Sequence record: NC_005833.1
DNA length: 48,836 bases
Source: Escherichia phage T1
Reading direction: 5' to 3' (one strand)
The first letter of the stretch is position 1. Each line of letters begins with the position of its first letter. The notes beneath the pieces were generated by a model, which made no database searches, was not told where the DNA came from, and was given only the letters and a program-made list of their open reading frames with translations. Position numbers and translations under genes: made by a program. Shown piece by piece: positions 121-48,751 of the stretch.

Positions 121-207
121 CGATTACGATTACGCTTGATTGCGTGTTAATCATTGTATATGATTTGCCTAAATCGCAATCGTATACAAAATTACGCCAA
201 ATTACGC

Positions 208-3389: not shown

Positions 3390-3538
3390 TGACTGCATGG
3401 GTCTTGATTATCTTGATGAGCAAAGGTCCGGATCACGTATACATGGAAAGTCAACAATCATGCAACAAGGCACGGGAAGTTATCGCAGAGAACAAGCCGT
3501 TCGGATATGAAGTAAAAACTATGTGCGTTAAACGATAG
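3389..3538 (+). CDS. small hypothetical protein (49 aa)
   Basis: Manual translation; ATG overlaps upstream TAA (TAATG); stop TAG inside box at 3535. Confidence 0.3.
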   Translation: MTAWVLIILMSKGPDHVYMESQQSCNKAREVIAENKPFGYEVKTMCVKR

Positions 3539-3586
3539 CACGAATTGCTAAACCTTCCGCAAGGCCATTTGATATAGTGGCCTTAT
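3535..3586 (+). promoter_or_regulatory. conserved box-hairpin element
   Basis: ATAGCACGAATTGCTAAAC; TTGCTA 3545-3550; 22-nt spacer; TATAGT 3573-3578; AAGGCCA / TGGCCTT arms. Confidence 0.6.
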
Positions 3587-3618
3587 TGAAGCACGACAAC
3601 CAACTGGAGGTAAAATTT

Positions 3619-4141: not shown

Positions 4142-4360
4142 ATGGCTACTATCATGACAGTAGAAGATGCAGCACGCGATGCAGTGGAAGGAATGCGCCC
4201 AAATACCTCCAGAATAGCACACTACTACAAATCTGAGGTGTCGGCAGTGCAATTGGTCCACGAAATTTTAAGGCTCCCACAAGTCGATTCAGCGCGCGTT
4301 GTGACGTGCTTAAAAAATTATTTTTGCATCACTATTAAAACGAATAGCACGAATTGCTAA
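4142..4360 (+). CDS. hypothetical protein (72 aa); a competing 36-aa ORF at 4047..4157 has the better RBS
   Basis: Track ORF; weak RBS; overlaps small ORF 4047..4157. Confidence 0.25.
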   Translation: MATIMTVEDAARDAVEGMRPNTSRIAHYYKSEVSAVQLVHEILRLPQVDSARVVTCLKNYFCITIKTNSTNC

Positions 4361-4395
4361 AACCTATCAAGGGGAATACGCTATGATTCCCCTAC
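4344..4395 (+). promoter_or_regulatory. conserved box-hairpin element
   Basis: ATAGCACGAATTGCTAAAAC; TTGCTA 4354-4359; 22-nt spacer; TATGAT 4382-4387; AGGGGAAT / ATTCCCCT arms. Confidence 0.6.
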
Positions 4396-4417: not shown

Positions 4418-4864
4418 ATGAAACACTTAATCTGCATTGAAGCGCCTAACGATCAATACACCCTGCATGGACTTGGTGTGTTCAAAGGTCACTACATTAC
4501 CGCAGGAACTTACGATGCTCGTCGCGGCGATGGCGACCTAATGATTACGTCAAAAGAAGTAAATCCGTACATCATGCAGAATCTTGGCAATAACGAATAT
4601 ATGGCCTATGGCTGCAACGCGGTGTACAAGCACGTTAAGATCCGCAAGCGTGTTGTGCGTGCATTCAAGAAGATTGCAATTAAATACTGGAAAATGAGCA
4701 AGAAAGATGCCGGACGTTGGGCGCGCAACGTTGCAGATTCATACTTCTATCGTAACGGCGAATCCTGCTACTTCCTGATCGATGAACTTATGGAAAACTA
4801 CGGTGGCGACTTCAGCCAGGGTAGCTTTGATGACTGGGCCAACTATGAGATCAGTTGCTGGTAA
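4418..4864 (+). CDS. hypothetical protein (148 aa)
   Basis: Track ORF after box-hairpin element 4344-4395; RBS GAGGAAG; double stop TAATAG. Confidence 0.5.
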   Translation: MKHLICIEAPNDQYTLHGLGVFKGHYITAGTYDARRGDGDLMITSKEVNPYIMQNLGNNEYMAYGCNAVYKHVKIRKRVVRAFKKIAIKYWKMSKKDAGRWARNVADSYFYRNGESCYFLIDELMENYGGDFSQGSFDDWANYEISCW

Positions 4865-4917
4865 TAGCACGAATTGCTAAAACTTGCTCAAGGGCATTTG
4901 TTAGAATGCCCTTCGTT
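4864..4917 (+). promoter_or_regulatory. conserved box-hairpin element
   Basis: ATAGCACGAATTGCTAAAAC; TTGCTA 4874-4879; 22-nt spacer; TAGAAT 4902-4907; AAGGGCAT / ATGCCCTT arms. Confidence 0.6.
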
Positions 4918-4947
4918 GAGTTAAGCAACCAATCAGAGGAATAAATC

Positions 4948-5961: not shown

Positions 5962-6534
5962 ATGAAAACAGCTATCATTTTAAACGGCGCACCTGGTGCG
6001 GGAAAGGACACTATCGGATGCATCCTGGCTGACACTTACGATCATGTAGCGCTACGCAGCTTCAAAGCGCCAATGTTTGAGATTGCCCGAGCAATCCTGG
6101 GTGAGACTAATTTCGAGTATTTCATGTTCTTGTATGAGGACCGTCGCTATAAAGAAGAGCCAGCGTCAATCCTGAACGGTAAAAGCCCGCGCCAGTTTAT
6201 GATCTGGATTAGCGAGGAGGTCATCAAGCCGCAGTTCGGAAATCGCTTCTTCGGTATGCGAGCGGAAAGTAAGGTGAAAGAGTCGCATTCACTTTCGGTA
6301 TTTACTGACGGTGGATTCAAAGACGAGATCTTGCAGATGATTGAAGGTGACATCCAGGTCAAGCTGTGTCGAATCCATCGCAACGGTTGCAACTTTGACA
6401 ACGACAGTCGCGACTATATCTATCTTGACGATATGATCGGGGTCAACGGTTATCAGGAGTGTGACTTCTTTTCTGTCGAAGGCCATCCAGAAATTACCGC
6501 TCAGCACATAGCCGCCACGTTCATCAATAAATAG
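5962..6534 (+). CDS. P-loop nucleotide/polynucleotide kinase
   Basis: Walker A GAPGAGKDT near N-terminus (GKDT as in dNMP kinases); about 190 aa. Confidence 0.6.
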   Translation: MKTAIILNGAPGAGKDTIGCILADTYDHVALRSFKAPMFEIARAILGETNFEYFMFLYEDRRYKEEPASILNGKSPRQFMIWISEEVIKPQFGNRFFGMRAESKVKESHSLSVFTDGGFKDEILQMIEGDIQVKLCRIHRNGCNFDNDSRDYIYLDDMIGVNGYQECDFFSVEGHPEITAQHIAATFINK

Positions 6535-6582
6535 CACGAATTGCTAAAACGTCGGTGTGGTGATTTGATATAGTTACCTCAT
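6531..6582 (+). promoter_or_regulatory. conserved box-hairpin element
   Basis: ATAGCACGAATTGCTAAAAC 6531-6550; 22-nt spacer; TATAGT 6569-6574. Confidence 0.6.
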
Positions 6583-6606
6583 CGACAACGAAGAGAGAAA
6601 ATCGAA

Positions 6607-8342: not shown

Positions 8343-8395
8343 ATGCCTGCAATATGGTAAAATAGCACTAAATGTTAAACAAAGAGGATGTATTT

Positions 8396-15049: not shown

Positions 15050-15070
15050 CATAAAAACACTTTGACGCTT

Positions 15071-15086
15071 TAACAAAAAGTGCTAT
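15071..15086 (-). promoter_or_regulatory. box copy in antisense orientation between Ig-like protein gene and capsid gene
   Basis: Plus strand TAACAAAAAGTGCTAT (reverse complement ATAGCACTTTTTGTTA); plus strand also reads TTGACG-16-TATTAT. Confidence 0.4.
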
Positions 15087-15093
15087 TATTGAA

Positions 15094-15117
15094 GCCGTGA
15101 ACATAATCACGGTTTTT
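15094..15117 (+). terminator. rho-independent terminator / attenuator upstream of capsid gene
   Basis: CCGTGA acataa TCACGG followed by T6. Confidence 0.55.
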
Positions 15118-15139
15118 TATTAACTATGGAGAAGTAATC

Positions 15140-16099
15140 ATGACTACTAAAAAATTTGATGAAGCAGATAAAAGCAATGTTGAAATGTATCTGATCCAGG
15201 CTGGCGTAAAACAGGATGCGGCCGCAACGATGGGTATCTGGACCGCTCAGGAACTACACCGCATCAAAAGCCAGTCCTATGAAGAAGACTACCCGGTCGG
15301 CTCAGCTTTACGCGTATTCCCGGTTACAACCGAGCTTTCTCCGACCGACAAGACGTTTGAGTATATGACCTTTGATAAGGTTGGTACGGCTCAGATTATC
15401 GCAGACTACACCGACGATCTTCCGCTGGTTGATGCCCTGGGTACTTCTGAATTTGGCAAGGTGTTCCGTCTTGGTAACGCGTACCTGATCTCAATCGACG
15501 AAATCAAAGCGGGTCAGGCAACTGGTCGCCCACTGTCAACCCGTAAGGCGAGTGCGTGCCAGTTGGCGCATGATCAGCTTGTTAACCGCCTGGTGTTCAA
15601 AGGTTCCGCGCCGCACAAGATTGTGTCCGTGTTCAACCATCCGAATATCACCAAAATTACCTCTGGTAAGTGGATTGATGTATCTACTATGAAGCCGGAA
15701 ACTGCGGAAGCTGAGCTAACTCAAGCGATCGAAACCATCGAGACGATTACTCGTGGTCAGCACCGCGCAACCAACATCCTGATCCCGCCTTCCATGCGTA
15801 AGGTTTTGGCGATTCGTATGCCTGAGACAACCATGTCTTACCTGGACTATTTTAAGTCTCAGAACTCCGGTATCGAAATCGACTCTATCGCAGAGCTTGA
15901 GGATATTGACGGCGCAGGCACCAAAGGCGTACTGGTGTACGAAAAGAATCCGATGAACATGTCCATCGAGATCCCGGAAGCATTTAACATGCTGCCAGCA
16001 CAACCGAAAGACTTGCACTTTAAAGTGCCTTGCACCTCTAAGTGTACTGGTCTTACAATTTATCGCCCGATGACTATTGTCTTAATCACTGGCGTGTAA
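15140..16099 (+). CDS. major capsid protein
   Basis: 319-aa ORF with AT-rich strong RBS, flanked by rho-independent terminators; position within head module. Confidence 0.65.
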   Translation: MTTKKFDEADKSNVEMYLIQAGVKQDAAATMGIWTAQELHRIKSQSYEEDYPVGSALRVFPVTTELSPTDKTFEYMTFDKVGTAQIIADYTDDLPLVDALGTSEFGKVFRLGNAYLISIDEIKAGQATGRPLSTRKASACQLAHDQLVNRLVFKGSAPHKIVSVFNHPNITKITSGKWIDVSTMKPETAEAELTQAIETIETITRGQHRATNILIPPSMRKVLAIRMPETTMSYLDYFKSQNSGIEIDSIAELEDIDGAGTKGVLVYEKNPMNMSIEIPEAFNMLPAQPKDLHFKVPCTSKCTGLTIYRPMTIVLITGV

Positions 16100-16106
16100 T
16101 ATTATA

Positions 16107-16135
16107 GGGGCTAACTTAGTTAGTCCCTTTTTTTA
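16107..16135 (+). terminator. rho-independent terminator after capsid gene
   Basis: GGGGCTAAC .. GTTAGTCCC (one mismatch) followed by T8. Confidence 0.6.
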
Positions 16136-16149
16136 TTGGAGAAATCAAA

Positions 16150-16437
16150 ATGGCTAAAGAAAAAACTGTTGTTATCGTAAACGTTGGTGTAGCTCTTCAG
16201 ATGTTCCGTCTTGAAGATGGTTCCTTTGCTAAAGTTCTTCCAGATGAAGAGGTCACGCTTCCGGCGTCCGTTCTTGATTTACCTGGTCTGCGTTGCTTAA
16301 TTGCTCGCGAAGAAATCGAAGTTAAAGACGACAGTGCAACCAACCGCAAAATCCGCGCTGAAATGGCAAAGATCACGAAGCCAGATCCGTGGGATAAAAT
16401 GAGCGTAAAAGAGCTTGAAGACGGCGGCGAATATTAA
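16150..16437 (+). CDS. hypothetical head-module protein (95 aa)
   Basis: Track ORF between two intrinsic terminators downstream of capsid gene. Confidence 0.4.
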   Translation: MAKEKTVVIVNVGVALQMFRLEDGSFAKVLPDEEVTLPASVLDLPGLRCLIAREEIEVKDDSATNRKIRAEMAKITKPDPWDKMSVKELEDGGEY

Positions 16438-16443
16438 TCATCA

Positions 16444-16469
16444 AGGCGCTCATGTAGCGCCTTTTTTTA
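16444..16469 (+). terminator. rho-independent terminator
   Basis: AGGCGCT catgt AGCGCCT followed by T7. Confidence 0.7.
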
Positions 16470-16481
16470 TGGTGGTAAATT

Positions 16482-16892
16482 ATGAATCAAGAAACTTTAA
16501 TTGCAGTTGTTGAGCAAATGCGAAAGCTGGTTCCGGCACTTCGTAAGGTTCCAGACGAAACGCTTTATGCGTGGGTAGAAATGGCTGAGCTTTTTGTATG
16601 CCAGAAGACCTTTAAAGACGCATACGTCAAAGCGCTCGCTCTTTATGCATTGCACCTTGCTTTCCTTGACGGGGCGCTAAAAGGTGAAGATGAGGATCTG
16701 GAATCGTACTCACGACGAGTTACGTCATTCTCCCTGAGCGGTGAATTTAGCCAGACTTTCGGAGAGGTTACAAAGAACCAGTCAGGAGACATGATGCTTT
16801 CGACGCCGTGGGGTAAGATGTTCGAACAGCTTAAAGCGCGACGCCGTGGTCGATTCGCATTAATGACAGGACTCCGTGGAGGATGCCACTAA
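16482..16892 (+). CDS. head-tail connector / head completion protein (positional)
   Basis: Track ORF; position between capsid and tail genes. Confidence 0.4.
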   Translation: MNQETLIAVVEQMRKLVPALRKVPDETLYAWVEMAELFVCQKTFKDAYVKALALYALHLAFLDGALKGEDEDLESYSRRVTSFSLSGEFSQTFGEVTKNQSGDMMLSTPWGKMFEQLKARRRGRFALMTGLRGGCH

Positions 16893-17263
16893 TGAACTAC
16901 TCACAGATTGAAAGGATGGCTCGCAAAGGTGTGGCTTTCTTCACCGATCCGTCAAGACCTATGAACCTGATAAAGCAAGGTGAATACGGATATGATGAAA
17001 ACGGATTCGAGATCCCACCGATGGAACAGGTTATTCCAATATCCGGCGCGACGCGAAGACCGAACGCGCGTGAGATTGACGGGGAAACCATCCGCGCCTC
17101 AGATATTTTGGGGATCTTCAATAATGATCATGAAATAAACGAAGGTGACTATATAGAGATTGATGGCATTCGTCATGTTGTCGTTGATGCTCGCCCGGTT
17201 CAGGCGTCACTGGAACCAGTTGCCTATCGTCCAGTATTGCGGAGGGTATCAGTCGGTGGCTAA
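16883..17263 (+). CDS. head-tail joining protein (positional)
   Basis: Track ORF overlapping neighbours by a few codons. Confidence 0.4.
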   Translation: MPLMNYSQIERMARKGVAFFTDPSRPMNLIKQGEYGYDENGFEIPPMEQVIPISGATRRPNAREIDGETIRASDILGIFNNDHEINEGDYIEIDGIRHVVVDARPVQASLEPVAYRPVLRRVSVGG

Positions 17264-17699
17264 TTATCAGATTCGTAGATTTCAAGGCGAGATTGATGCG
17301 TGGATTAATGCCGCTGAAAGCACGTTAGAACATGCTATTGAGATATTCGTAAGGGATGTTCACGACGCTCTTGTTAGCCGCTCCCCTGTTGATACAGGTC
17401 GATTCAAGGGTAACTGGCAGATAACTTTTAACGAAATCCCTAACCACGCATTAAACCGATACGATAAAACTGGCGGTGTCGTCAGGGGTGAGGAACAGGC
17501 AAAAACTTATGGCATGTTCAGCCGTGGCGGCGCGATAACATCCGTTCACTTTTCAAACATGTTGATTTATGCAAACGCTCTTGAGTACGGTCATTCACAG
17601 CAAGCACCGAGCGGCGTTGTCGGTCTTGTGGCGTTAAGGCTTAGATCATATATGGCTGACGCAATCAAGCAGGCAAGGAGACAGCAAAATGCACTATGA
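17256..17699 (+). CDS. tail completion / neck protein (positional)
   Basis: Track ORF 17160..17699 overlaps upstream gene; likely GTG start at 17256 overlapping upstream stop, after GAGGG. Confidence 0.35.
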   Translation: MANYQIRRFQGEIDAWINAAESTLEHAIEIFVRDVHDALVSRSPVDTGRFKGNWQITFNEIPNHALNRYDKTGGVVRGEEQAKTYGMFSRGGAITSVHFSNMLIYANALEYGHSQQAPSGVVGLVALRLRSYMADAIKQARRQQNAL

Positions 17700-18087
17700 G
17701 TTATCAGCGGCGGCGCGAGCCGCTTTTCTATCAAAGTACAGAGACTTTCCTCACTACATGGAAAACAGAAATTTCACACCGCCGAAGGATGGCGGGATGT
17801 GGCTGAGGTTCAACTACATTGAAGGGGATACGCTTTATCTATCCATTGACAGAAAGTGTAAATCTTACATCGCAATCGTTCAGATCGGCGTAGTGTTCCC
17901 TCCAGGCTCCGGCGTTGACGAAGCAAGATTGAAAGCAAAAGAGATTGCTGATTTTTTCAAAGATGGTAAAATGCTTAACGTTGGTTATATTTTCGAGGGT
18001 GCAATCGTGCATCAAATTGTTAAACATGAAAGCGGGTGGATGATTCCGGTTCGCTTTACAGTACGAGTAGACACAAAGGAGACTTAA
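17689..18087 (+). CDS. tail component protein (positional)
   Basis: Track ORF; overlaps neighbours. Confidence 0.4.
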   Translation: MHYELSAAARAAFLSKYRDFPHYMENRNFTPPKDGGMWLRFNYIEGDTLYLSIDRKCKSYIAIVQIGVVFPPGSGVDEARLKAKEIADFFKDGKMLNVGYIFEGAIVHQIVKHESGWMIPVRFTVRVDTKET

Positions 18088-18089
18088 TT

Positions 18090-18758
18090 ATGCACTTACC
18101 AAATGGCGCACAAATTTTCGTGGAAACCTCTCGCGGGGTAGAGGTTGAGGCAACCGCTATCACTAACGCAGAAAATCCTGTTGCTACAGTTGCATCTAAG
18201 GGTGACTTGGCAAAAGGTGATTACGTTATTGTAACTCAGTCAACTTGGGCAAAGATGGTTAGTCGAGTGCTAATTGTTACTGACGCTCAGGAAACAAGTA
18301 TCACTCTTGCTGGAATTGACACCTCCGATACTCTTGTTTTCCCGGCTGGCGGCACGATGAGCTTTGCAAAAATTACTGGCTGGACTGAGATCCCTTGCGT
18401 ACAGGAGATTGGTCAGGACGGCGGCGAGCAGCAGTATTACACTTATCAGTGTTTGTCCGACGATAAAGAGCAGCAGATCCCAACGTTTAAATCTGCGGTC
18501 TCGCTAACTTACACCTTCGCGCACGAATTTGATAACCCGATCTACCCGATTCTGCGCAAGCTGGATTCGTCTGGTCAGGTAACAGCGGTTCGAATGTACG
18601 TTCCGAAAGCGAGCGAAATGCGCATGTGGGCTGGCATCTTGTCGTTTAACGATATCCCATCCACGCAGGTTAACGAAATGGAAACGGTGGAACTCGCCGT
18701 ATCCCTGAAAGGTGACTTTACTTTCATCTCATCCACTCTGGCATCGCCTGGTGCTTAA
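18090..18758 (+). CDS. major tail (tube) protein
   Basis: Track ORF 18036..18758; start refined to ATG 18090 after AGGAGA; precedes chaperone and tape measure genes. Confidence 0.5.
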   Translation: MHLPNGAQIFVETSRGVEVEATAITNAENPVATVASKGDLAKGDYVIVTQSTWAKMVSRVLIVTDAQETSITLAGIDTSDTLVFPAGGTMSFAKITGWTEIPCVQEIGQDGGEQQYYTYQCLSDDKEQQIPTFKSAVSLTYTFAHEFDNPIYPILRKLDSSGQVTAVRMYVPKASEMRMWAGILSFNDIPSTQVNEMETVELAVSLKGDFTFISSTLASPGA

Positions 18759-18794
18759 ATACCATCCACAGGGGGCTTGCACCCCCTTATTCAT

Positions 18795-18850
18795 TTCTGT
18801 AAAATCATCTTATCAACTTTATTCGATTAACTTTTAACAAAAAGTGCTAT
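18795..18850 (-). promoter_or_regulatory. box copy in antisense orientation between major tail and chaperone genes
   Basis: Plus strand TTAACAAAAAGTGCTAT 18834-18850; reverse-strand reading has TAAGAT hexamer 22 nt downstream. Confidence 0.4.
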
Positions 18851-18871: not shown

Positions 18872-19189
18872 ATGGCTAAATTCAATTTCGTGTTGGGCCA
18901 GCTTCCAGACTTCAAACTTCCGGTGACGTTCACCATGCCAAACGGCGAGGATGCGACTATTATTTTTACAGTACGCCACCTTTCCAGTAAAGAAGTGCAA
19001 GATATGTATGCGAAGCAGGGCGAAATGAATGATAGCGATTTCATCACTAAGATAGCATCAGGATGGAATCTGGAAGAAGAATTTAACGAAGAGAATACGC
19101 GTAAGCTGGTACAGTATTATCCTTCCGCAGCGTACAATCTGACGGCAACTTACATCAAGGCGCTCGCCGGACACCGCGCAAAAAACTAA
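18872..19189 (+). CDS. tail assembly chaperone (lambda G-like)
   Basis: 105-aa ORF directly upstream of tape measure gene; ends in slippery heptamer. Confidence 0.55.
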   Translation: MAKFNFVLGQLPDFKLPVTFTMPNGEDATIIFTVRHLSSKEVQDMYAKQGEMNDSDFITKIASGWNLEEEFNEENTRKLVQYYPSAAYNLTATYIKALAGHRAKN

Positions 19190-25006: not shown

Positions 25007-25042
25007 GAGTCCACCGATAAATAGCACAAAAAGGTAAACATC

Positions 25043-30318: not shown

Positions 30319-30346
30319 TTGACTAAACGCTGTTAATGGCTATAAT
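30319..30346 (+). promoter_or_regulatory. sigma70-like promoter for recombination operon
   Basis: TTGACT 30319-30324, 16-nt spacer, TATAAT 30341-30346, about 30 nt upstream of exonuclease start. Confidence 0.6.
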
Positions 30347-30377
30347 GGATTCATCGTAAACGAAGGAGATAAACGCA

Positions 30378-32694: not shown

Positions 32695-34881
32695 CTACGT
32701 ATTTTTTAAGCTTTCAACAAACTCTCCAGATACCATTCTTTCATGATTTCTTTTGCACTCTTCAACCTTCTTGTTGTAAATCGAGTCATTAGGCATCTCA
32801 ACTCGAACGCTAACAAAAACATCACTCGGAATGTCAATAGGATCTCCGTCGCTATACCCATCCTTATGATTTCTTGCGAATGAAGGCGCGTTATCATGAG
32901 TTCTATGATAAGTCTTGATAACCAAAGACCCATCAGGGTTAACATCATAATCTACCCACAATATAGGCTGTCCGTTAATGTCTTTTGGTATCTCTATACC
33001 ACCATTAACACCACCCCACGCTAGATCAGAATTTAGTGATAAACACCCCCTTATCAAATACTCGCCAGTAGAAATCCTCTCAACTGTACAACCTTCGCTC
33101 TCGTCGTTTGTTCTATGGCTCCCGTTGCCAAAAATATCAACGATGGGCGAGGCTCTTTTTATAAATCCGTTAGAGTCAACGGTTGTATTGCCTGTATTCC
33201 ATATAACCTGGGTAGATTGCCATTGCCCCGCTCCTGTCTGTTTTCTGAGCCTCACATCCTTATAGTGTGGAGAGGTCATTGATGCGTCTTCAATAACAAA
33301 ACCGAAAGCACTACCATCTCCTTGACCGTTTCTATGACGAACAGATATAGCTGTGACCCATCCAACAGAATTAACATTGTAACTTGCAAGGCTGCTAGGC
33401 TGAGATGATAAGGCGTTAACATAATCTACCCAGCTTGATTTCTCGTTAGATGCCGGACTTGATACAACGTTACCGGAAGAACTTGCCTGAAACGGTATCC
33501 ACGGAGAAAACTTTGCATTATTGCCGTTTTTCATCCTTATGTAAAAAGTGCCGCGACCCGCTCTTGCGTATTCGTTTTGAGAATTTCCAGATTCTGGGGC
33601 AGTACCCAAATAAGTAAAAGGCGTAAATCTCTGAATGCAAGCGCTTGCACCGTTAGCTCCATTAGGAAGAACCTCAAGCATACCTGCCGTAGCCTCAGGA
33701 TAGCCCCTACTAGCGGTAGCTAAAGCACTTGATGATTGCATATATATTCCAGGGCCATCACCTTCACCAGTTATTGAATCAAGATGTTTTTCCCCTAAGT
33801 TAGTTCTATCAAGTTTGTAAACCTTTAGGCTTGTCCTTGCCTGCTCCTCGGTAGTTCCACCAGTGCCACCAAAATTAACCCCTAGAGCCTTGTTTTCACT
33901 TCCATCATGAGTCATGGCGCCCCAGTCGCCGCTATCCTTGACGATCAGCTTAAATCCGGTCCTATCGTCATTTGAATAGATTTCCGTTAAATCTCCGCGA
34001 GGTTGATTTAATCTATTTACTGCTAGATTTTTCTTTGATTGCTCCTTGTCAGCAAGGCCAGAAAGATTTCCGTCCTTAGTTAAAAGATTGTCAGCATTAA
34101 CGCTATTTGCTGCGTCCTGAGCTTCCTGAGCACTTACCGCTGCCGCGTCTTTAGCGCTAACCGCCGCATCGCGTGCTGCCTGGGCATCGTTTTTTGCTGA
34201 GGTTGCAGTTTGCGCCGCAGTCTGAGCATCATTAACATAGCCAGATAGATCGCCTTTAGCGTCATTGATTGCCTGAATGGCCGCCGCCTCTTCAGAGTTA
34301 ATATGCGTAACGGCTGAATTTTCTTTTTGCTGCACATTAGTGATAGCCTTGTCTTTTGCTGCATTAATGCTACCAATAGCGCTATCTGAGATTTGCTGCG
34401 TCTGGTTTTTTATTGAGATAGACTCGTCACGCGCTGAATTAGCTGAGTCGCGAGCAAGCTCCGCTTGATTCTGCGCAGCTTCTGCGGCTGATTTGTTTGA
34501 CTTAATTTCTTGAACGATATTGTTCAGGTTGTCCATATCAAGATCGGCAATAATATCCAATGCCGATGCGATCTCAGTCTCTTTGCTCTGGTAGTACCGA
34601 AGCGTCTCAGCGACGTTTTGCGCAAGACCGTTAACGGTCAATGAATCGTTAAGCAAGATCACATACTTACCGTCAGCGGCAGTCTGACCATCCGTAGAGA
34701 TAGCCTTTAGCTCTGTGTCGCTCACAATGTCGCTGATTACCGCCAGTTTAATTGGTTGCTCCAGGAATACGATAGTTGCACCGACTCGAATCAGAGCAAG
34801 CTGATCTTTCCATTTTGTATCGGTTCCGTGAACCGTACCGTCTGCATCCATTGATGCAGTACCGCGTCTATATAAAGCCAT
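32695..34881 (-). CDS. tail fibre protein
   Basis: 728-aa reverse-strand ORF; long Ala/Gln/Asp/Ser-rich helical N-terminal region, Gly/Ser/Asn-rich beta-like C-terminal region. Confidence 0.6.
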   Translation of the reverse strand: MALYRRGTASMDADGTVHGTDTKWKDQLALIRVGATIVFLEQPIKLAVISDIVSDTELKAISTDGQTAADGKYVILLNDSLTVNGLAQNVAETLRYYQSKETEIASALDIIADLDMDNLNNIVQEIKSNKSAAEAAQNQAELARDSANSARDESISIKNQTQQISDSAIGSINAAKDKAITNVQQKENSAVTHINSEEAAAIQAINDAKGDLSGYVNDAQTAAQTATSAKNDAQAARDAAVSAKDAAAVSAQEAQDAANSVNADNLLTKDGNLSGLADKEQSKKNLAVNRLNQPRGDLTEIYSNDDRTGFKLIVKDSGDWGAMTHDGSENKALGVNFGGTGGTTEEQARTSLKVYKLDRTNLGEKHLDSITGEGDGPGIYMQSSSALATASRGYPEATAGMLEVLPNGANGASACIQRFTPFTYLGTAPESGNSQNEYARAGRGTFYIRMKNGNNAKFSPWIPFQASSSGNVVSSPASNEKSSWVDYVNALSSQPSSLASYNVNSVGWVTAISVRHRNGQGDGSAFGFVIEDASMTSPHYKDVRLRKQTGAGQWQSTQVIWNTGNTTVDSNGFIKRASPIVDIFGNGSHRTNDESEGCTVERISTGEYLIRGCLSLNSDLAWGGVNGGIEIPKDINGQPILWVDYDVNPDGSLVIKTYHRTHDNAPSFARNHKDGYSDGDPIDIPSDVFVSVRVEMPNDSIYNKKVEECKRNHERMVSGEFVESLKNT

Positions 34882-34901: not shown

Positions 34902-34945
34902 ATAGCACGAATTGCTAAGCAATGATTTTATCATTGTGATACCTG
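34902..34945 (+). promoter_or_regulatory. box copy between two reverse-strand genes (tail fibre and primase)
   Basis: ATAGCACGAATTGCTAAGC 34902-34920; hexamer position poor (TACCTG). Confidence 0.35.
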
Positions 34946-34960
34946 CCTTGCAATGGGCAA

Positions 34961-34983
34961 TAAAAAACCGCCCGAAGGCGGTT
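34961..34983 (-). terminator. rho-independent terminator of primase gene (reverse strand)
   Basis: AACCGCC cgaa GGCGGTT preceded on plus strand by A6 (T-run on reverse strand). Confidence 0.6.
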
Positions 34984-35917
34984 AGAGTAGGTCACTTGCT
35001 GAGAATAATTTGGCTTGCATTCCTGAGCGGTATCCTCCGGGATTCGGTATGATTATTTTTAATTGTCTGTCGTCTGCCATGTACAAGGTATCCTTGTCTG
35101 AAGGTTCACACGCCACCCTTACCTCTCGATCACCTTTATACCTGTATGCAACCATTTCGAGGTTTTCAGGGGTGAAGCAGGCCCATACCTCTTGCTTTGT
35201 GTGAAATGCAATATGCTGAGCATCAATCCAGTTAAGGCATAAGTAGATCGCCTTTTCAGTTTTACCAGTCACGGCAACCGAGCAACTCGTGTATTTCTTC
35301 GCATAAAATGACTCTCTTCCTTCTTCATCAATAATCAAAATATTGCAAAACTCATCATCAAGCCCATCCTCGTGCACAAGTTGACACGGTATAGTGTGAA
35401 ATACGCTCTCTCTTCCATCCTCGCTACGCTTTATACCGACATCGAATGATTCGGTGGGTAGTGACTCAAACACGCTCAACGGCGTATTTACACGTTTCTC
35501 TGTGCGCTCCATAACCTTCATCACCGCCTCATGTTCAGCCATCATGACATTGACACCTGACACCGGAGTCCGGCGCGCTTTCTTGTTTGCCTTGACGATG
35601 TATTCCTGCGGAACCTTTCCGAGAAATCTTCCCAGGATGTTTACGCATTCGCTGTACGGCATACCAGTCAACTTCATCAGCCAGCCAATACCAGAGTCGT
35701 TACCGCATGAGTTGCAGATCGCACCGCCGTCGCCCGGGGTGTTCAGGTTATCAGTCCAGCGAAATCGGTCTTTACCGCCGCAGTTGGGGCAGGGTTGGTG
35801 CTTCTTATTAAAAACATTATTCGGCAATCCGCAGATTGATTGGAAAGCCTCGCGCCATAACCCCTTCATGTACGGTAAAACGTCCTCTTTCTGAAACATC
35901 ATAAATTCTTCGTTCAC
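34982..35917 (-). CDS. DNA primase (zinc-ribbon type)
   Basis: CPNCGGKDRFRWTD..CNSCG zinc-binding motif as in phage primase-helicase zinc domains; own terminator 34961-34983. Confidence 0.55.
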   Translation of the reverse strand: MNEEFMMFQKEDVLPYMKGLWREAFQSICGLPNNVFNKKHQPCPNCGGKDRFRWTDNLNTPGDGGAICNSCGNDSGIGWLMKLTGMPYSECVNILGRFLGKVPQEYIVKANKKARRTPVSGVNVMMAEHEAVMKVMERTEKRVNTPLSVFESLPTESFDVGIKRSEDGRESVFHTIPCQLVHEDGLDDEFCNILIIDEEGRESFYAKKYTSCSVAVTGKTEKAIYLCLNWIDAQHIAFHTKQEVWACFTPENLEMVAYRYKGDREVRVACEPSDKDTLYMADDRQLKIIIPNPGGYRSGMQAKLFSASDLL

Positions 35918-35969: not shown

Positions 35970-35978
35970 TCGTTTGTT

Positions 35979-36431
35979 TTAACTAAAAATGCTATTGGTC
36001 GTTCCGATATCTTCCCTCTTCACGACGCGCATAAATTTCTTGTTCTTGCATCGCTTCTCAAGGCACTTGCCGTTACCGTCAAACTTCAGGTCGAATCGCA
36101 ACCATGCGGCCCTAAACCCTTTGCACCCCTGTCGGCGGTAAGCACGATGCGCAGCTTCAGCGCCTTGCCATGAAATCATATTGCGTTCTTTCCAGCCTTG
36201 CACCGTCTGATTGCTAACCTTCAGAGCCTTTGCGCAGGCCGCCGGGCCGCCGTAATATTCGATAAGGGCATCAAGTCGCGCTCGCAGTCCGGCGCGCGTT
36301 TCTTCTTTATGAATATAGAACCCGCAACGCTGGCGAGGCTTTTTATCTTTACCGCGCCGTGTTCCGTTGTTACCATTGATGTGACGTTTATCGATTTCAC
36401 CAGTTGACTCTGCGATACGTTGAATACTCAT
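35979..36431 (-). CDS. HTH DNA-binding protein (possible transcriptional regulator)
   Basis: 150 aa; basic; helix-turn-helix-like AACAKALKVSNQTVQGW segment. Confidence 0.4.
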   Translation of the reverse strand: MSIQRIAESTGEIDKRHINGNNGTRRGKDKKPRQRCGFYIHKEETRAGLRARLDALIEYYGGPAACAKALKVSNQTVQGWKERNMISWQGAEAAHRAYRRQGCKGFRAAWLRFDLKFDGNGKCLEKRCKNKKFMRVVKREDIGTTNSIFS

Positions 36432-36443: not shown

Positions 36444-36500
36444 ATAGCACTTTTTGCTAAAAACGTTTACTTTATGCCGTGTATTATAGCGTAAACGTTA
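36444..36500 (+). promoter_or_regulatory. conserved box-hairpin element upstream of helicase
   Basis: ATAGCACTTTTTGCTAAAAAC; TTGCTA 36454-36459; 22-nt spacer; TATTAT 36482-36487; AACGTTTAC / GTAAACGTT arms. Confidence 0.55.
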
Positions 36501-36524
36501 CAACGATTCAAAGGATTAATAGCC

Positions 36525-38543
36525 GTGACAATGAACATTAAAAAACAGATTGCATTACTTGGCGATGACTATATAAAGAGAACTCAGGAGCGATTTACTG
36601 TTGGTGAGGTTGTTCCTTATCCGTACCAGGTTGTTGCTTATGCCGAGATCGCGAAACGCCTATCAAATTACGAGCATCCATTCTTCGTTAAAGCGTCTGT
36701 ATCCGCAGGTAAGACAATCATCTTCGCTATGGTGGCAAAGCAGTGTCAGAAAATGGGCTTAAAAATGCTTGTCCTGGCTCGTCAGGGTGAGATTGTCGAT
36801 CAGGATAGCGAAGAGATCGACAACTTCGGGGTAACGAACTCCATCTTCTCAGCGTCACTTGGAATCAAGTCCTGCTACTTCCCGATCGTGGTTGGCTCAG
36901 AGGGTACTGTTGCAAATGGCCTCGACAATGAGTTAGCTGATTTCGTCCCGCATGTAATTGGGATCGACGAATGTCACCAGGTGGATTGGGAAGACCTTGC
37001 GCAAGCCATCGAGGGTAAGGAAACAATGGAACAAATGAGGGGCGAGAAAGGGAAAATTATCATGGACGGAGATATTCCCCTGATTGGTAATGATGGAAAG
37101 CCTTTGCTTGGAACTAAGCGCAGTCAGTACACGATCGTAATCATGGAAATGATGCGGCGCTGTAAAAAGGTTCACGGTCACGATCTCAGAATATTTGGTA
37201 TGACTGGATCTGAATTTCGTGGCGTAGTTCCTATTCTGGTAGAGAATCCGAAAGCATTGGGATTCTGGCGTGAGCGAGTAACTGATATCGACACAAACTA
37301 TCTGATTGAGTTCGGCTCTGTCGTTCCGACTATATTCGGATCAACAGACGGAGTTCATTACGATCTTGATAAGTTCAAGGCGTCTAGCGAGGACGGAGTG
37401 CAGGACTTTACAGAGAAAGACATGAAGGCTATGGAAGATGAGATCCTTCATGATAAATCTCTGACTCAGCGAATCATGCAAATGGTCGCCAAAAAGGCAG
37501 AAGAACGCAATGCGGTCCTGATTACATGTGCTGGTGTGCGCCACTGCAAAGAGGCAGCGGCAGCACTTCCTCCGGGAAGCACCTATGCAATTATTACTGG
37601 CGACACAGACAACAAAGCGCGCAAGAAGATTCTTGACGATGTAAGGGCCGGAAAAATTAAATACACCTTTCAGGTAATGGCGCTCACTACTGGCGTTAAC
37701 GTTCCAAATTGGGATTTCAGTGTCATACTCCGCAAGATAGGATCGCTCACTCTGTTGATTCAACTTTTGGGTAGGGGTATGCGACTGCTTAAATCCTGGC
37801 AGGTTGCTGAAGGAATGGTTAAGCAGGACCATCTGGTATGGGATTTTGCAGGTACGATGGATGAGCTGGGTCAGCTTTATTTCGATCCGATACTTGAGCA
37901 GGCGCAATTCCAGAAGCGTTTTGAAAACGGCAAAGATCCGAAAACATGTCCGAAATGCGGTTGCGTAAATAGCTTCTATGCTCGACGATGCGTTAATGTC
38001 ATTGATGGTGAGCGTTGCGATCATTTCTGGACTTCTCAGATTTGTGAGGACCAGGTTGACGAGCGAACCGGGAAAATCCTTGTTAAAGGATGCGGTGCAG
38101 AGAATGACGTTGTTGCGCGAGTCTGTCGTTGTTGTGATGCTTCTCTTGTCGATCCTAACCTGAAGTTATCCGGTAAGGCGTACACCAAGAATGACTGGTA
38201 TGAAGTAAAGAATTTTGAGGTTACGCTAACCAAAAACCAGAAAGGCATAATATACAAATACACTCTGATTAACGACGATGGTGATGAGTTCAAGGCGTAT
38301 GAAAAATTCTTCCCCGAGTCTGACTCTAAGATTTGCGGTACGCTATGGAAAACTAAAGGTGTACTTCCTCATGTGTCAGATCCTAAAATGCGCCGCTACT
38401 TTATCGGAATGAAGAACGCCATCAAGATTTTGCAATACTCACATCATATTGCTCACCCGGTGCGCGTAACTCATCGTCGCAACCAGAAGAAAGAAGATAT
38501 CATCTCACGCAAAGACTTCGGTATGGAGGATATCCCGGAATGA
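36525..38543 (+). CDS. SF2 DNA helicase (DEAH-type) with C-terminal zinc-ribbon
   Basis: Walker A SVSAGKT, motif II IGIDECH; C-terminal CPKCGC..CRCCD cysteine clusters. Confidence 0.8.
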   Translation: MTMNIKKQIALLGDDYIKRTQERFTVGEVVPYPYQVVAYAEIAKRLSNYEHPFFVKASVSAGKTIIFAMVAKQCQKMGLKMLVLARQGEIVDQDSEEIDNFGVTNSIFSASLGIKSCYFPIVVGSEGTVANGLDNELADFVPHVIGIDECHQVDWEDLAQAIEGKETMEQMRGEKGKIIMDGDIPLIGNDGKPLLGTKRSQYTIVIMEMMRRCKKVHGHDLRIFGMTGSEFRGVVPILVENPKALGFWRERVTDIDTNYLIEFGSVVPTIFGSTDGVHYDLDKFKASSEDGVQDFTEKDMKAMEDEILHDKSLTQRIMQMVAKKAEERNAVLITCAGVRHCKEAAAALPPGSTYAIITGDTDNKARKKILDDVRAGKIKYTFQVMALTTGVNVPNWDFSVILRKIGSLTLLIQLLGRGMRLLKSWQVAEGMVKQDHLVWDFAGTMDELGQLYFDPILEQAQFQKRFENGKDPKTCPKCGCVNSFYARRCVNVIDGERCDHFWTSQICEDQVDERTGKILVKGCGAENDVVARVCRCCDASLVDPNLKLSGKAYTKNDWYEVKNFEVTLTKNQKGIIYKYTLINDDGDEFKAYEKFFPESDSKICGTLWKTKGVLPHVSDPKMRRYFIGMKNAIKILQYSHHIAHPVRVTHRRNQKKEDIISRKDFGMEDIPE

Positions 38544-38956
38544 TTACAGACAAAGGTGATTATTTAGAATTTTACGAGAGAGACACAAGCGACACTCGAA
38601 AGGAGGATGCTCATCAGGTGGATTGTGTATCTTGGCTGAAATACAATTTTCCTCACCTTCTATTTTGGCACACTGTCAATGAAGGTGAAAAAACAATCAC
38701 ATCGGCGCTCAGGGATGAGCAGGCAGGATTACTTAAAGGCGTGTCAGACTTCGTTATCCTGATTGGTGTTAACTCACGATACCCGTTTGCAGCAATCGAA
38801 CTTAAGCGGGTTAATAAGTCAGGCAAAGGAAAGGCGTCACCAGTCAGCGACAAGCAAAGGGAATTTCTCCAAAAGGTCCGGGAGCGTGGCGGCTTCTCTG
38901 CCGTCGCATACGGATTCGGGCAATTCAAGATCGCAATTTACGAAATGATGAAATAG
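38540..38956 (+). CDS. VRR-NUC domain nuclease
   Basis: SWL, GVSDFVIL, AAIELKR, SDKQREFL, GGFSAVA motif order typical of VRR-NUC PD-(D/E)XK nucleases; ATGA overlap with helicase. Confidence 0.65.
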   Translation: MITDKGDYLEFYERDTSDTRKEDAHQVDCVSWLKYNFPHLLFWHTVNEGEKTITSALRDEQAGLLKGVSDFVILIGVNSRYPFAAIELKRVNKSGKGKASPVSDKQREFLQKVRERGGFSAVAYGFGQFKIAIYEMMK

Positions 38957-39000
38957 CACTTTTTGTTAAAACTGCCGGGATGGAATCTGGCATTATTATC
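38953..39000 (+). promoter_or_regulatory. conserved box-hairpin element upstream of dam
   Basis: ATAGCACTTTTTGTTAAAAC; TTGTTA 38963-38968; 22-nt spacer; CATTAT 38991-38996. Confidence 0.55.
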
Positions 39001-39737: not shown

Positions 39738-39985
39738 TGAGCGAAAAAATGGTTCCTGTTAAATTAACTGAGCAAGGTTTATGGCTACTTTATCGAGCTA
39801 CGTGCTGCGAAATTATGGAGCGAAACGGATTGACTCAGGATGTTATTGGTTGCGATCTGTGGGAGTTCACTAGTTCTCTTGATATGTCTTTCGATGAGAT
39901 AAAAAATGAATACATAGAGAACTGGCCTTCAATCATACAGAAAGACGTGGAAGAACTTAAAGCTGATACAATCGTACAGCACTAA
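39734..39985 (+). CDS. hypothetical protein (83 aa)
   Basis: Track ORF 39692..39985; start refined to ATG 39734 (ATGA overlap with dam). Confidence 0.4.
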   Translation: MMSEKMVPVKLTEQGLWLLYRATCCEIMERNGLTQDVIGCDLWEFTSSLDMSFDEIKNEYIENWPSIIQKDVEELKADTIVQH

Positions 39986-40030
39986 TTGCTAAAACTACCC
40001 GGCGAAAGTCGGGTATAGTTATTTCATAGA
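39975..40030 (+). promoter_or_regulatory. conserved box-hairpin element (variant ACAGCAC)
   Basis: TTGCTA 39986-39991; 22-nt spacer; TATAGT 40014-40019; CCCGGCGAAAGTCGGG inverted repeat. Confidence 0.55.
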
Positions 40031-40261: not shown

Positions 40262-40511
40262 GCGCGAAGTGTGGGAGCACGCAAAGGAATGCGGCATCTC
40301 AGACGATATAGCATTAATTGCTAAATACTTTGATATAAAGGATGTTAGCATTATATCAAACGGCAAGATTTCATTTATGGAAGGTATGCCGAGAAAAATG
40401 CAAAGAGTTCCAGCCACTCCATCACTTGAGTTTTACCGCGAAGAGGGAAAGAGAATTGAGCGAGAAAGAAAATCCACAAAAAACGGCAAGTCTTCCCGGC
40501 TTAAATATTAA
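40239..40511 (+). CDS. hypothetical protein (90 aa)
   Basis: Track ORF; overlaps next ORF in another frame. Confidence 0.3.
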   Translation: MLIKKQGKREVWEHAKECGISDDIALIAKYFDIKDVSIISNGKISFMEGMPRKMQRVPATPSLEFYREEGKRIERERKSTKNGKSSRLKY

Positions 40512-41955: not shown

Positions 41956-42010
41956 ATAGCACCTTTTGTTAAAACAGTACCCGCGAAAGCGGGTATTATT
42001 GTTTTATAGA
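41956..42010 (+). promoter_or_regulatory. conserved box-hairpin element upstream of HNH gene
   Basis: ATAGCACCTTTTGTTAAAAC; TTGTTA 41966-41971; 22-nt spacer; TATTAT 41994-41999; CCCGCGAAAGCGGG inverted repeat. Confidence 0.55.
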
Positions 42011-42027
42011 AACAAGAGGAGATTGCA

Positions 42028-42510
42028 ATGAACTGGCACGAGCATTACGAATATAGGGATGGTGTTCTATATCACAAGGTAAAGCCATGCAGAAGGCATG
42101 ATGTAAATATTGGGGATGTTGCTGGAAGGGTTGCCAAAAACGGCTATCACTATGTTGTTCACAAGAACAGGCCGTATAAGAGATCTCGAGTTATATGGGA
42201 GATGTTTAATGGTGAGATACCAGATGGTTTTGTTATAGATCATCTGAATCACAATGCCACCGATGATAGGATCGATAACCTTGAGTGTAAGCCAAGAAGA
42301 GAGAATATGGTTAATGTTAAGTTAAGGATTGATAGCACGACCGGAGTAACTGGCGTATCAAGAAAGAGGGATAACAAGTGGAGGGCGTACATAACAATTA
42401 TGGGTAAGCAGAAGTGCAAGAGCTTTGACACGTTTGAGGAAGCTTGCGCGCAGAGGATTGAATGGTCAGTAACTCATGATTTTCACCCAAATCACGGTGG
42501 AACATACTAA
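42028..42510 (+). CDS. HNH homing endonuclease with AP2-like domain
   Basis: GEIPDGFVIDHLNHNATDDRIDNL HNH core, TGVTGVS..KWRAYI AP2-like segment; AGA/AGG/ATA-rich codons. Confidence 0.75.
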   Translation: MNWHEHYEYRDGVLYHKVKPCRRHDVNIGDVAGRVAKNGYHYVVHKNRPYKRSRVIWEMFNGEIPDGFVIDHLNHNATDDRIDNLECKPRRENMVNVKLRIDSTTGVTGVSRKRDNKWRAYITIMGKQKCKSFDTFEEACAQRIEWSVTHDFHPNHGGTY

Positions 42511-42560
42511 TAGCACCTTTTACCTAACCCGCGCCACAGAAGTGCGGCATAGTAACCACA
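42510..42560 (+). promoter_or_regulatory. diverged box-hairpin element
   Basis: ATAGCACCTTTTACCTAA; 22-nt spacer; CATAGT 42548-42553; CGCGCCACAGAAGTGCGGC region. Confidence 0.45.
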
Positions 42561-42582: not shown

Positions 42583-42759
42583 ATGAAGATAGTCAAGTGC
42601 ATCCGAAATGACTCCAAAACACTTCCATTCCGTGTAAATCAGATCTATAGTGTTGGTTATGATTTCGGTGGGGGATTATTTGAGATTTACGACGGGCGAG
42701 GTTCAGCAATCCAGACTCCTCTGAACGGTCACTACCTGGAATTTATTGAGATAGATTAA
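42583..42759 (+). CDS. small hypothetical protein (58 aa)
   Basis: Manual translation downstream of box element 42510-42560; weak RBS. Confidence 0.3.
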   Translation: MKIVKCIRNDSKTLPFRVNQIYSVGYDFGGGLFEIYDGRGSAIQTPLNGHYLEFIEID

Positions 42760-46085: not shown

Positions 46086-46624
46086 CACAATAAACTCCTT
46101 AGTTGACGGCGTGAATGATACACCGTCAATGGTACACGCGTTTTGCAAAAAGTGCTATTCGATCCGTGATTCTCATGAAAACCGTATAGCCTTTCCGCTT
46201 CCTTCCTTGCTTTAGCCGCTGCATCCAGCGTCATGAAGGTCCCTAAGTGTTTTGTCTTTTTATTTATGGTTATGTTTGCCGTGTATCTATTTGTTTTTTT
46301 ATTCCAATACACTCCCATAACTCCTGTGTTTGATGACACTACTCCCTTGTTTCTTAGGTTGTCTTGCCTAGTTACTAGCCTGAGATTCTCAATTCTGTTA
46401 TCGTCTCTTTCATGGTTTATGTGGTCTACATCCATTCCTTCTGGTATGTTTCCGTAGTGTATTTTCCATACTATTCGATGGGCGTATTCAAATACACCTC
46501 CTGGAAAACATATTGACCGATAACCTTTTTTATTAACAGTTCCGGCAAGTAGATTTCGTCTTCTTCCGATTCTCCACTCTTTCCAGTACAGTCTCCCGCT
46601 AACGTATTTCAGTTCATCTTTCAT
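46085..46624 (-). CDS. HNH homing endonuclease with AP2-like domain
   Basis: GNIPEGMDVDHINHERDDNRIENL core; AGA/ATA-rich codons; last 25 codons read through a box-hairpin element. Confidence 0.75.
   Translation of the reverse strand: MKDELKYVSGRLYWKEWRIGRRRNLLAGTVNKKGYRSICFPGGVFEYAHRIVWKIHYGNIPEGMDVDHINHERDDNRIENLRLVTRQDNLRNKGVVSSNTGVMGVYWNKKTNRYTANITINKKTKHLGTFMTLDAAAKARKEAERLYGFHENHGSNSTFCKTRVPLTVYHSRRQLRSLL
46100..46160 (-). promoter_or_regulatory. conserved box-hairpin element, reverse strand, inside 3' end of HNH ORF
   Basis: Reverse complement reads ATAGCACTTTTTGCAAAA, 22 nt, TATCAT, then RBS and ATG of P-loop NTPase gene. Confidence 0.55.
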
Positions 46625-47059: not shown

Positions 47060-47117
47060 TCTTGAATAAGGCCACTTTATCAAATGACCTTACGGCAATA
47101 TTAACAAATCGTGCTAT
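47060..47117 (-). promoter_or_regulatory. conserved box-hairpin element, reverse strand
   Basis: Reverse complement reads ATAGCACGATTTGTTAA, 22 nt, TAAAGT, with AAGGTCA / TGGCCTT arms. Confidence 0.55.
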
Positions 47118-47574: not shown

Positions 47575-47633
47575 TTTGGTATGGGAGTAATATACCTTAC
47601 TCCCCGATGTGTGTCTTTAGCAATTTGTGCTAT
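47575..47633 (-). promoter_or_regulatory. conserved box-hairpin element, reverse strand
   Basis: Reverse complement reads ATAGCACAAATTGCTAAAG, 22-23 nt, (G)TATAT(T), GGGGAGTA / TACTCCC arms. Confidence 0.55.
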
Positions 47634-48689: not shown

Positions 48690-48751
48690 TACTGTTGATG
48701 TGATGAATCATACCCAGTAGACATGGATAAGTCGTTAGCAAAAAATGCTAT
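48690..48751 (-). promoter_or_regulatory. conserved box element, reverse strand, upstream of first leftward gene
   Basis: Reverse complement reads ATAGCATTTTTTGCTAA, 22 nt, GTATGA. Confidence 0.5.

Follow-up and report, generated by a model that had tools for sequence, protein, structure and literature searches.

In Escherichia coli, the transcriptional regulators MarA, SoxS and Rob act through the marbox, the consensus of which is 5'-gcactaattgctaaa-3' according to chromatin immunoprecipitation sequencing (ChIP-seq) of MarA (PMC5684230) or, in its other form, 5'-gcannwwntgnnaaa-3' (PMC12052159). The marbox is not palindromic and its orientation matters: class II sites are forward and overlap the -35 element, whereas class I sites (the mar and acrA type) are backward, lie upstream of the -35 element and are centred between -56 and -85 (PMC12052159). 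In the RamA–micF complex, the site is at approximately -41 and reads CACT-7X-AAA along the direction of transcription (PMC8811837). A marbox that overlaps the spacer leads to repression of pbpG by MarA, SoxS and Rob (PMC12052159), and a single marbox at lpxC (P1/P2), and likewise at mla (P1/P2), activates one promoter while overlapping another (PMC12052159, PMC5684230). Here, we describe an 18-bp box that recurs in the genome of Escherichia phage T1 (NC_005833.1; 48,836 bp, which constitutes the window analysed; 99.9% identity to Tunavirus T1, MN153797), with emphasis on three copies that face against their neighbouring genes.

In phage TLS, a 21-nucleotide (nt) repeat, aaATAGCACnnnTTGnTAAAA, occurs as 18 intergenic copies approximately 76 nt before start codons (German, DeGiulio, Ramsey, Kropinski and Misra 2024, PMC11447400). 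The authors of that study report the repeat from T1, Rtp and Rogue1 also, state that all the TLS copies point with transcription, and list its function as an open question for the T1-like phages, offering a stoperator, an enhancer or an UP element (PMC11447400). The T1 box is the same element; PMC11447400 does not mention the marbox, nor does it describe the reversed copy upstream of the capsid gene, which is present in TLS itself and in the TLS-like phage LL5. Judged by its sequence, the T1 box is a marbox-type site, and, on balance, we think it probable that forward copies switch early genes on and reversed copies hold late promoters down, with MarA, SoxS or Rob of the host as the probable reader. 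The parts of such a scheme are known; marbox regulation in a virulent phage, including repression of the rob type by a backward marbox, would be a new use of them.

The box and its resemblance to the marbox

Written in the forward sense, the box is ATAGCACTTTTTGTTAAA; its reverse complement, TTTAACAAAAAGTGCTAT, is the plus-strand reading at two of the reversed copies (sites 1 and 2, below). The 18-mer has 13 matches with three or fewer mismatches in the T1 genome, compared with 0.06 expected from shuffled sequence, and a position weight matrix (PWM) scan finds approximately 22 real copies, among them those of the GAATTGCTAAA and TAATTGCTAAA subtypes. Seventeen of them run ATAGCAC to TAAA along the neighbouring genes, and three, starting at 15069, 18833 and 34902, run in the opposite direction. 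An earlier note on this sequence had reported copies opposing the flanking genes at 15071–15086 and 18834–18850, and a plus-oriented copy at 34902–34920 between reverse-strand genes: the former two lie within exact 18-mers (15069–15086 and 18833–18850), and the latter corresponds to the variant ATAGCACGAATTGCTAAG at 34902–34919 on the plus strand. The suggestion in the same note that these might be bidirectional binding sites is at odds with the asymmetry of the box and with its constant orientation at every site: 17 of 17 forward promoters in T1, 18 of 18 in LL5, and 53 capsid-upstream loci.

Copies in T1 agree with the marbox consensus at all 10 of its specified positions (for example, GCACTTTTTGTTAAA); GCACGAATTGCTAAA scores 14/15, and both ATAGCACTAATTGCTAA and GCACTAATTGCTAA(A), found in relatives, score 15/15. 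Conversely, a PWM built from the T1 boxes alone returns the known marbox as the top match in the regulatory regions of micF (10.7 bits), marRAB (18.7 bits) and rob (13.8 bits), the runners-up scoring below 2 bits for micF and marRAB; for rob, a second marbox-like site is followed by a match of 3.4 bits. That second site, AAAACACTGAATGCTAAA (positions 181–198, minus strand, of the rob promoter as retrieved, L201; 10.9 bits), is forward and abuts the backward marbox.

The geometry of the forward copies points the same way. A TAnnnT hexamer is found exactly 20 nt past the box (N20) in 14 of the 19 forward or unassigned copies in T1, and 21 nt past it (N21) in two more; TAnnnT occurs at 1.5% of T1 genome positions, giving p ~5e-22 for the enrichment at N20. 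In E. coli K-12, the micF promoter reads GCACTGAATGTCAAA-N20-TAGAAT and the annotated 5' end of micF is 8 nt past the hexamer; the forward T1 arrangement, GCAC..AAA-N20-TAnnnT, has this same 20-nt gap. If the start is taken as 7 nt past the -10 element, the centre of the forward T1 box falls at approximately -40/-41, which is within the class II range of -36 to -55. Moreover, the box reads CACT-TTTTGTT-AAA, in keeping with the sequence contacted by RamA. The TTG within the box is 22 nt from the -10 element and cannot, therefore, act as a -35 element; on this spacing, TTGTTA/TTGCTA was rejected as a -35 candidate. Thus, in sequence terms, the forward copies have the look of activator-dependent promoters, and the pattern recurs in LL5 (18 forward copies) and in two further T1-like genomes. 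Among the matches listed from a pattern scan of IMG/VR, most were single chance matches; clusters were found in T1-like contigs, including Rtp.

A micF-like class II arrangement, i.e. a forward box centred at about -41 with 20 nt between its AAA and the -10 element, is common to the 17 forward T1 copies and to the antisense promoter at site 2. T1 departs from the host class II promoters in the closeness of its boxes to consensus and in their density (approximately 22 in 49 kb), and also because most of its boxes are accompanied by an inverted repeat that brackets the -10 element, a feature undescribed for host marbox promoters.

These inverted repeats bracket or adjoin the -10 element in 16 of 19 forward box promoters (RNAfold z < -2; mean z -3.4). 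They lie in the 42 nt past the box (for example, 1468–1509, 3553–3594, 4882–4923, 6549–6590 and 41974–42015), and the sequences of their stems vary from copy to copy.

Site 1: a reversed box in the capsid promoter

The major capsid protein gene (15140–16099, plus strand), which ends at a terminator (16106–16128), is preceded by a predicted sigma-70 promoter at 15062–15089 on the plus strand, composed of TTGACG (15062–15067), a 16-nt spacer and TGc-TATTAT, with the -10 hexamer at 15084–15089 and a predicted start at approximately 15095–15097. It matches the sigma-70 consensus at 10 of 12 positions, with a TG extended -10, and outscores every other plus-strand match in the 20-kb structural module. 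The reversed box, an exact ATAGCACTTTTTGTTAAA on the minus strand (15069–15086), extends across the spacer into the -10 hexamer, of which it takes in the first 3 nt, such that GTGCTAT of the reversed box supplies the TGn of the extended -10. The earlier note had added, as a remark, that TTGACG-16-TATTAT can be read here; the motif is real, and, as far as the sequences can tell, the remark turns out to be the main point, in that each of the three reversed boxes either overlaps or adjoins a conserved sense sigma-70 promoter of a late gene.

In 53 related loci, TLS included, which represent 31 distinct contexts, a box lies 30–120 nt upstream of the capsid gene, and all 53 have it in the reversed orientation. 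Both the position and the orientation are kept down to approximately 55–58% capsid identity despite diverging flanks, which excludes the proposal that such copies are relics. In 31 of 31 distinct contexts, TTGnnn lies 16 nt upstream of a TATnnT hexamer, the TAT of which is the end of the box. On the opposite strand, TAnnnT is found at N20 in only 2 of 31, the hexamer in T1 itself being TATACA. Given 31/31 for the sense hexamers versus 2/31 for the antisense, what is conserved at site 1 is the sense promoter, the spacer of which holds a backward marbox.

The closest described counterpart is the rob promoter. Comparison of AACAGCAAAAAATGCTATTAT (rob) with TTTAACAAAAAGTGCTATTAT (T1 capsid) reveals a backward marbox between the -35 and -10 elements of both, with its ATAGCA end over the -10 element, in the same register. 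MarA, SoxS and Rob reportedly repress the rob promoter, and this is said to involve a ternary complex in which open-complex formation is blocked. The overlap with the core promoter that typifies rob and pbpG is seen at two of the T1 sites, with the site 1 box inside 15062–15089 and the site 3 box (below) over the predicted start. Site 1 differs from rob in that it belongs to a virulent phage, is located upstream of a capsid gene and has a hairpin with a T-run downstream; by analogy, repression would be predicted for T1.

The stem-loop and T-run (15091–15116, plus strand; -12.6 kcal/mol, z -5.5) lie between the capsid promoter and the ribosome-binding site of the capsid gene, and the stem covaries among relatives. 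Since the predicted capsid start is inside the 5' arm, the hairpin may halt read-through from upstream yet pass transcripts of the capsid promoter, in which case it may act as a terminator for the former only.

Site 2: opposed promoters at the tail-assembly chaperone gene

At site 2, the exact 18-mer is on the minus strand (18833–18850), 21 nt upstream of the ATG of the tail-assembly chaperone gene at 18872, and a reversed box follows the major tail gene in 26 related loci (20 contexts). Exactly 20 nt past the box there is a putative antisense extended -10, TGA-TAAGAT (18807–18815, minus strand; predicted start at approximately 18800). Across a 20-nt gap of variable sequence, TAnnnT is retained in 20 of 20 distinct relatives and TGn in 17 of 20. 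The earlier note had suggested that the reversed copies could drive antisense RNAs: an antisense promoter is supported only at 18833, and not at the capsid site (2/31) or at 34902, where the hexamer is not conserved.

The predicted sense promoter of the chaperone and tape-measure genes (18777–18805, plus strand) comprises TTGCAC (18777–18782), a 17-nt spacer and TAAAAT (18800–18805), with a start at approximately 18812; both TAnAAT and TTGC are retained in relatives, and the -35 element sits in the loop of the major-tail terminator (18770–18787). The sense (18800–18805) and antisense (18807–18812) -10 hexamers are 1 bp apart on opposite strands. Each predicted start is at the far edge of the hexamer of the other promoter, from which it follows that the two promoters would be mutually exclusive.

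An antisense transcript would reach the reverse face of the terminator within approximately 15 nt, and, in many relatives, the reverse-face hairpin is followed by UUGUGAUU; consequently, the antisense RNA may be only about 40 nt in length. Competition with the sense promoter seems a likelier purpose of the antisense promoter than a regulatory antisense RNA in its own right. The nearest host parallels are lpxC and mla, from which site 2 differs in that its competing promoters lie on opposite strands, facing one another.

Site 3: a box over the predicted start of the tail-fibre transcript

The third reversed copy, the variant ATAGCACGAATTGCTAAG (34902–34919, plus strand), lies between the minus-strand genes at 32695–34881 and 34982–35917, and is reversed with respect to the tail-fibre gene. 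The predicted tail-fibre sense promoter (34925–34953, minus strand) consists of TTGCAA (34953–34948), a 17-nt spacer and TGa-TAAAAT, with the -10 hexamer at 34930–34925, and is conserved. The box begins 5 nt past this hexamer and spans approximately +1 to +17 of the predicted transcript, thereby covering the start region. The plus-strand hexamer at N20 (TACCTG) falls in a variable stretch and is not conserved among the relatives compared. Site 3 is kept in Tunavirus relatives and in two relatives at 73–76% primase identity; the primase-based search for loci gave almost only close relatives, and the range covered for this site is narrower than for sites 1 and 2.

Two further roles for the reversed boxes were considered and rejected. 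Class I activation of the late genes would require space and a -35/-10 pair at class I distance, neither of which is present: the boxes end 53 nt (site 1, with the hairpin between), 21 nt (site 2) and 20 nt (site 3) before the respective start codons. In marO, unlike at the T1 reversed boxes, a -35 element follows 16 nt after the marbox. Similarly, an action at the RNA level within the 5' untranslated region was discarded as a common function, as the site 1 box is upstream of the predicted start.

A proposed early/late switch

The proposal rests on the marbox identity of the box, its spacings, its orientation and its conservation, all of which are read from the genomes compared. The box would be an asymmetric, orientation-dependent target for an activator with a pair of helix-turn-helix (HTH) motifs, of the MarA/SoxS/Rob kind. 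In the forward orientation, at approximately -50 to -33 with the -10 element exactly 20 nt downstream, it would form a class II activator-dependent promoter serving the early genes and those for replication. The reversed copies would be superimposed on activator-independent sigma-70 late promoters, where the bound protein would hinder RNA polymerase in three different ways. At site 1, it would occupy the spacer between the -35 and -10 elements, from a box that supplies the TGcTAT of the extended -10, in the register of the MarA-repressed rob promoter; at site 2, it would activate the class II promoter on the opposite strand, with the interlocked -10 elements and starts letting polymerase occupy only one promoter at a time; and at site 3, it would cover approximately +1 to +17 of the tail-fibre transcript. 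Availability of the box-binding factor would, in this way, turn the early promoters on and hold these late promoters down. The binder would presumably be MarA, SoxS or Rob, most plausibly the abundant Rob, and its binding to the reversed copies would repress; relief could come later, for instance, through titration of the factor by replicating phage DNA, with its approximately 22 sites per genome.

The only detectable transcription factor of the phage is the product of pir (Orf23; 35979–36431, minus strand), a Cro-like regulator with a single HTH, which can be equated with the Pir protein of Laganenka et al. 2019, because their CRISPR interference guide maps inside the gene. The Pfam match of Orf23 is limited to a weak one to P22_Cro/YdaS, and the Pir family is confined to T1-like phages. 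In the AlphaFold model (mean predicted local distance difference test score (pLDDT) of 81.8; 93–97 over residues 41–130), the core is apparently Cro-like rather than MarA-like, matching Xfaso 1 Cro (template modelling score of 0.73) and N15 Cro. A phage-encoded AraC/MarA homologue was, therefore, dismissed as a candidate: the Pfam scan of the concatenated T1 hypothetical proteins found no AraC/XylS-type (MarA-like) protein. Pir acts in reporter assays as an activator of Pdam and Phol and as a repressor of Ppir and PrecE (Laganenka et al. 2019, PMC6737242).

Pir is the obvious competitor for the box. Its dimers might bind the quasi-dyad TAGCA-N5-TGYTA, activating from about -41 at forward copies and repressing at reversed ones, with the likeness to the marbox being coincidental or convergent. 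Such an arrangement would account for the boxes of Pdam and Ppir, the positions of which would predict the signs of the reporter responses (PMC6737242), for the perfect 5+5 dyad in roughly half of the boxes, with half-sites 10 bp apart, and for the co-occurrence of Pir homologues and boxes in T1-like phages. We nevertheless regard it as unlikely. The dyad is broken by invariant positions (A1/A17, C7/T11 and A18), the box strictly points one way at every promoter, a constraint that a symmetric dimer would not impose, and Pir-regulated Phol and PrecE lack a box in their 150-bp reporter regions. Moreover, the box stays constant while the recognition helix of Pir differs entirely (VSNQTVQGW versus VCCVRLTNAY or VPYVTVRNAY), and the two Pir-repressed promoters share GTAAACG/CGTTTAC repeats, which make a better operator candidate. 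The traits expected of a Cro-type operator (a dyad, indifference to orientation and co-variation with the recognition helix) do not, to judge from the sequences, characterize the box, and MarA, SoxS and Rob appear to fit it better than Pir does, abundant Rob being the obvious candidate.

Still less probable, in our estimation, is that all of the reversed copies are promoters for regulatory antisense RNAs that target the upstream structural genes at their 3' ends. Site 2, with its conserved box-N20-TGA-TAnnnT, is just what this predicts, and the N20 hexamer at site 1 of T1, TATACA, does possess the T and A of a -10 element; yet, TAnnnT is present there in only 2 of 31 distinct relatives, the site 3 hexamer is in a variable stretch, the site 2 transcript would immediately meet the reverse face of the terminator and may be no longer than about 40 nt, and the features conserved at sites 1 and 3 are the sense-strand promoters. 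The options raised for the TLS repeat by German et al. 2024 (PMC11447400) suggest a third alternative, to which we give very little credence: that the boxes are protein-independent DNA elements, akin to UP elements, or stoperator-like roadblocks, with the reversed copies being inactive leftovers. The centre of the box is indeed A/T-rich; however, its invariant core, GCAC, contains G/C and is ill-suited to an UP element, a fixed N20 to the -10 element, combined with the lack of a -35 that could be used, typifies an activator site, and retention of the reversed copies in place and orientation across subfamilies is not the behaviour of leftovers. As for stoperators, the Pfam scan of the T1 hypothetical proteins found no repressor comparable to the stoperator-binding L5 repressor.

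There are, equally, observations that count against a switch read by MarA, SoxS or Rob. Our literature search returned no electrophoretic mobility shift, footprint, ChIP or expression data for these proteins on T1 DNA, no paper linking T1 or the Drexlerviridae to them, and no T1 or Drexlerviridae transcriptome; the T1 transcription starts used here are predictions from sequence. The phage box is more invariant, at A3 and T11, than the marbox consensus needs, which could reflect another reader or recent copying, and the extended -10 elements that many forward promoters possess might let these fire unaided by an activator. In cells free of stress, most of the Rob protein is sequestered (PMC5684230). 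As the Pdam and Ppir regions each contain a box, Pir could be the binder or a co-factor. Finally, the reversed boxes are not universal among relatives, and the family can thus do without the arrangement: a capsid promoter of the form TGTATAAT lacks a box in JK06 and in an Rtp-type phage, the site 3 copy is absent from TLS-like and Vc1-like phages, and site 2 is absent from TLS-like phages.

A broader version of the proposal, which we advance more tentatively and rate as possible rather than probable, is that T1-like phages (Drexlerviridae) tie all of their temporal control to the mar/sox/rob stress regulon of the host. With approximately 20 forward marboxes close to consensus, the promoters for early and replication genes would depend on MarA, SoxS or Rob, and backward marboxes would keep those for capsid, tail and fibre shut until replicating phage DNA has titrated the factor, or until it has been lost following shut-off of the host. 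The development of the phage would then respond, by way of the host regulators, to bile salts, oxidants, salicylate and antibiotics, and the question posed by German et al. 2024 (PMC11447400) on the function of the 21-nt repeat would be answered. If the main proposal is right, a classic virulent coliphage would run most of its promoters via an antibiotic- and stress-response activator of its host, the site-orientation rule of that activator would separate early from late genes, and growth of T1-like phages would depend on rob, marA, soxS and their inducers. This would be of relevance to phage therapy in antibiotic-treated or bile-exposed Enterobacteriaceae, the Weberviruses of Klebsiella having the same sites, and the T1 genome would furnish approximately 20 natural high-affinity marboxes in defined promoter geometries for the study of MarA, SoxS and Rob. 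Were Pir to read the box instead, the architecture of the early/late switch of the family would still be defined.

Features associated with pir

The divergent promoters at 36462–36525 share a -10 region: on the minus strand, the pir promoter, TTGAAT-17-TATAAT, overlaps the plus-strand TATTAT of the helicase box promoter. Relative to the predicted pir start, the box concerned (36444–36461) is downstream, a position that may account for the reported autoregulation of Pir. In both PrecE (TTGACT-16-TATAAT, approximately 30320–30375) and Ppir (36462–36510), the GTAAACG/CGTTTAC repeats occur within the spacer and immediately downstream of the -10 element, and constitute a candidate Pir operator distinct from the box. 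In the protein itself, residues 6–33 form a near-invariant N-terminal motif, RIAxSTGEIDKRxxNGNNGTRRGKDKKPR, ahead of the Cro-like domain; this segment is modelled with low confidence and has no family match.

Distribution of the forward copies

The T1 genes are arranged in four blocks: rightward genes from approximately 0.5 to 32.6 kb (small early genes, followed by the packaging, head and tail module), leftward genes from 32.7 to 36.4 kb (tail fibre, primase and pir), rightward genes from 36.5 to 44.0 kb (helicase, dam and lysis) and leftward genes from 44.1 to 48.7 kb. In the first block, forward boxes on the plus strand are followed after N20 by TATAGT at 1450–1467, 2269–2286, 3535–3552 (of the GAATTGCTAAA type) and 6531–6548, by TATAAT at 2830–2847 (the variant TAAGCACGAATTGTTAAA, from the PWM scan), by TATGAT at 4344–4361 and by TAGAAT at 4864–4881. 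A further plus-strand copy (8362–8379) is 16 nt before the small-terminase ATG, too close for a -10 element. The forward box of the primase gene (35978–35995, minus strand) has TAACAT at N20, and that of the helicase gene (36444–36461, plus strand), which is also downstream of the divergent pir promoter, has TATTAT. Also on the plus strand, the box upstream of dam (38953–38970) has CATTAT at N20 and TATTAT at N23, and those at 39976–39993 (ACAGCACTAATTGCTAAA, from the PWM scan), 40308–40325 (within a gene) and 41956–41973 are followed at N20 by TATAGT, TAGCAT and TATTAT, respectively. In the last block, the minus-strand boxes at 46141–46158 and 47100–47117 have TATCAT and TAAAGT at N20, and those at 47616–47633 and 48734–48751 have TATATT and TATGAT at N21. 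One additional minus-strand copy (103–120), aimed off the left end of the permuted map, is without a -10 element at N20.

A box-like sequence in the forward sense at 25021–25038 is 4 nt before the ATG of a 1172-residue tail protein, and its score is within the range of shuffled sequence; like the copy at 8362–8379, it directly precedes a late-gene start codon, leaving no space for a -10 element or a start site. In T1, there is no box between the large-terminase and portal genes, where many relatives have a forward one (loci L012–L048, at positions of approximately 1185–1710). A degenerate forward box, ATAGCACCTTTTACCTAA (42510–42527), is followed by N20 and CATAGT, upstream of a small open reading frame (42583–42759); it is approximately 300 nt before the holin gene and outside the 150-bp Phol reporter region of Laganenka et al. 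At the boxes starting at 41956, 39976 and 35978, a hairpin is followed by a T-rich -10 region, as if the terminator of the upstream gene had been packed between the box and the -10 element.

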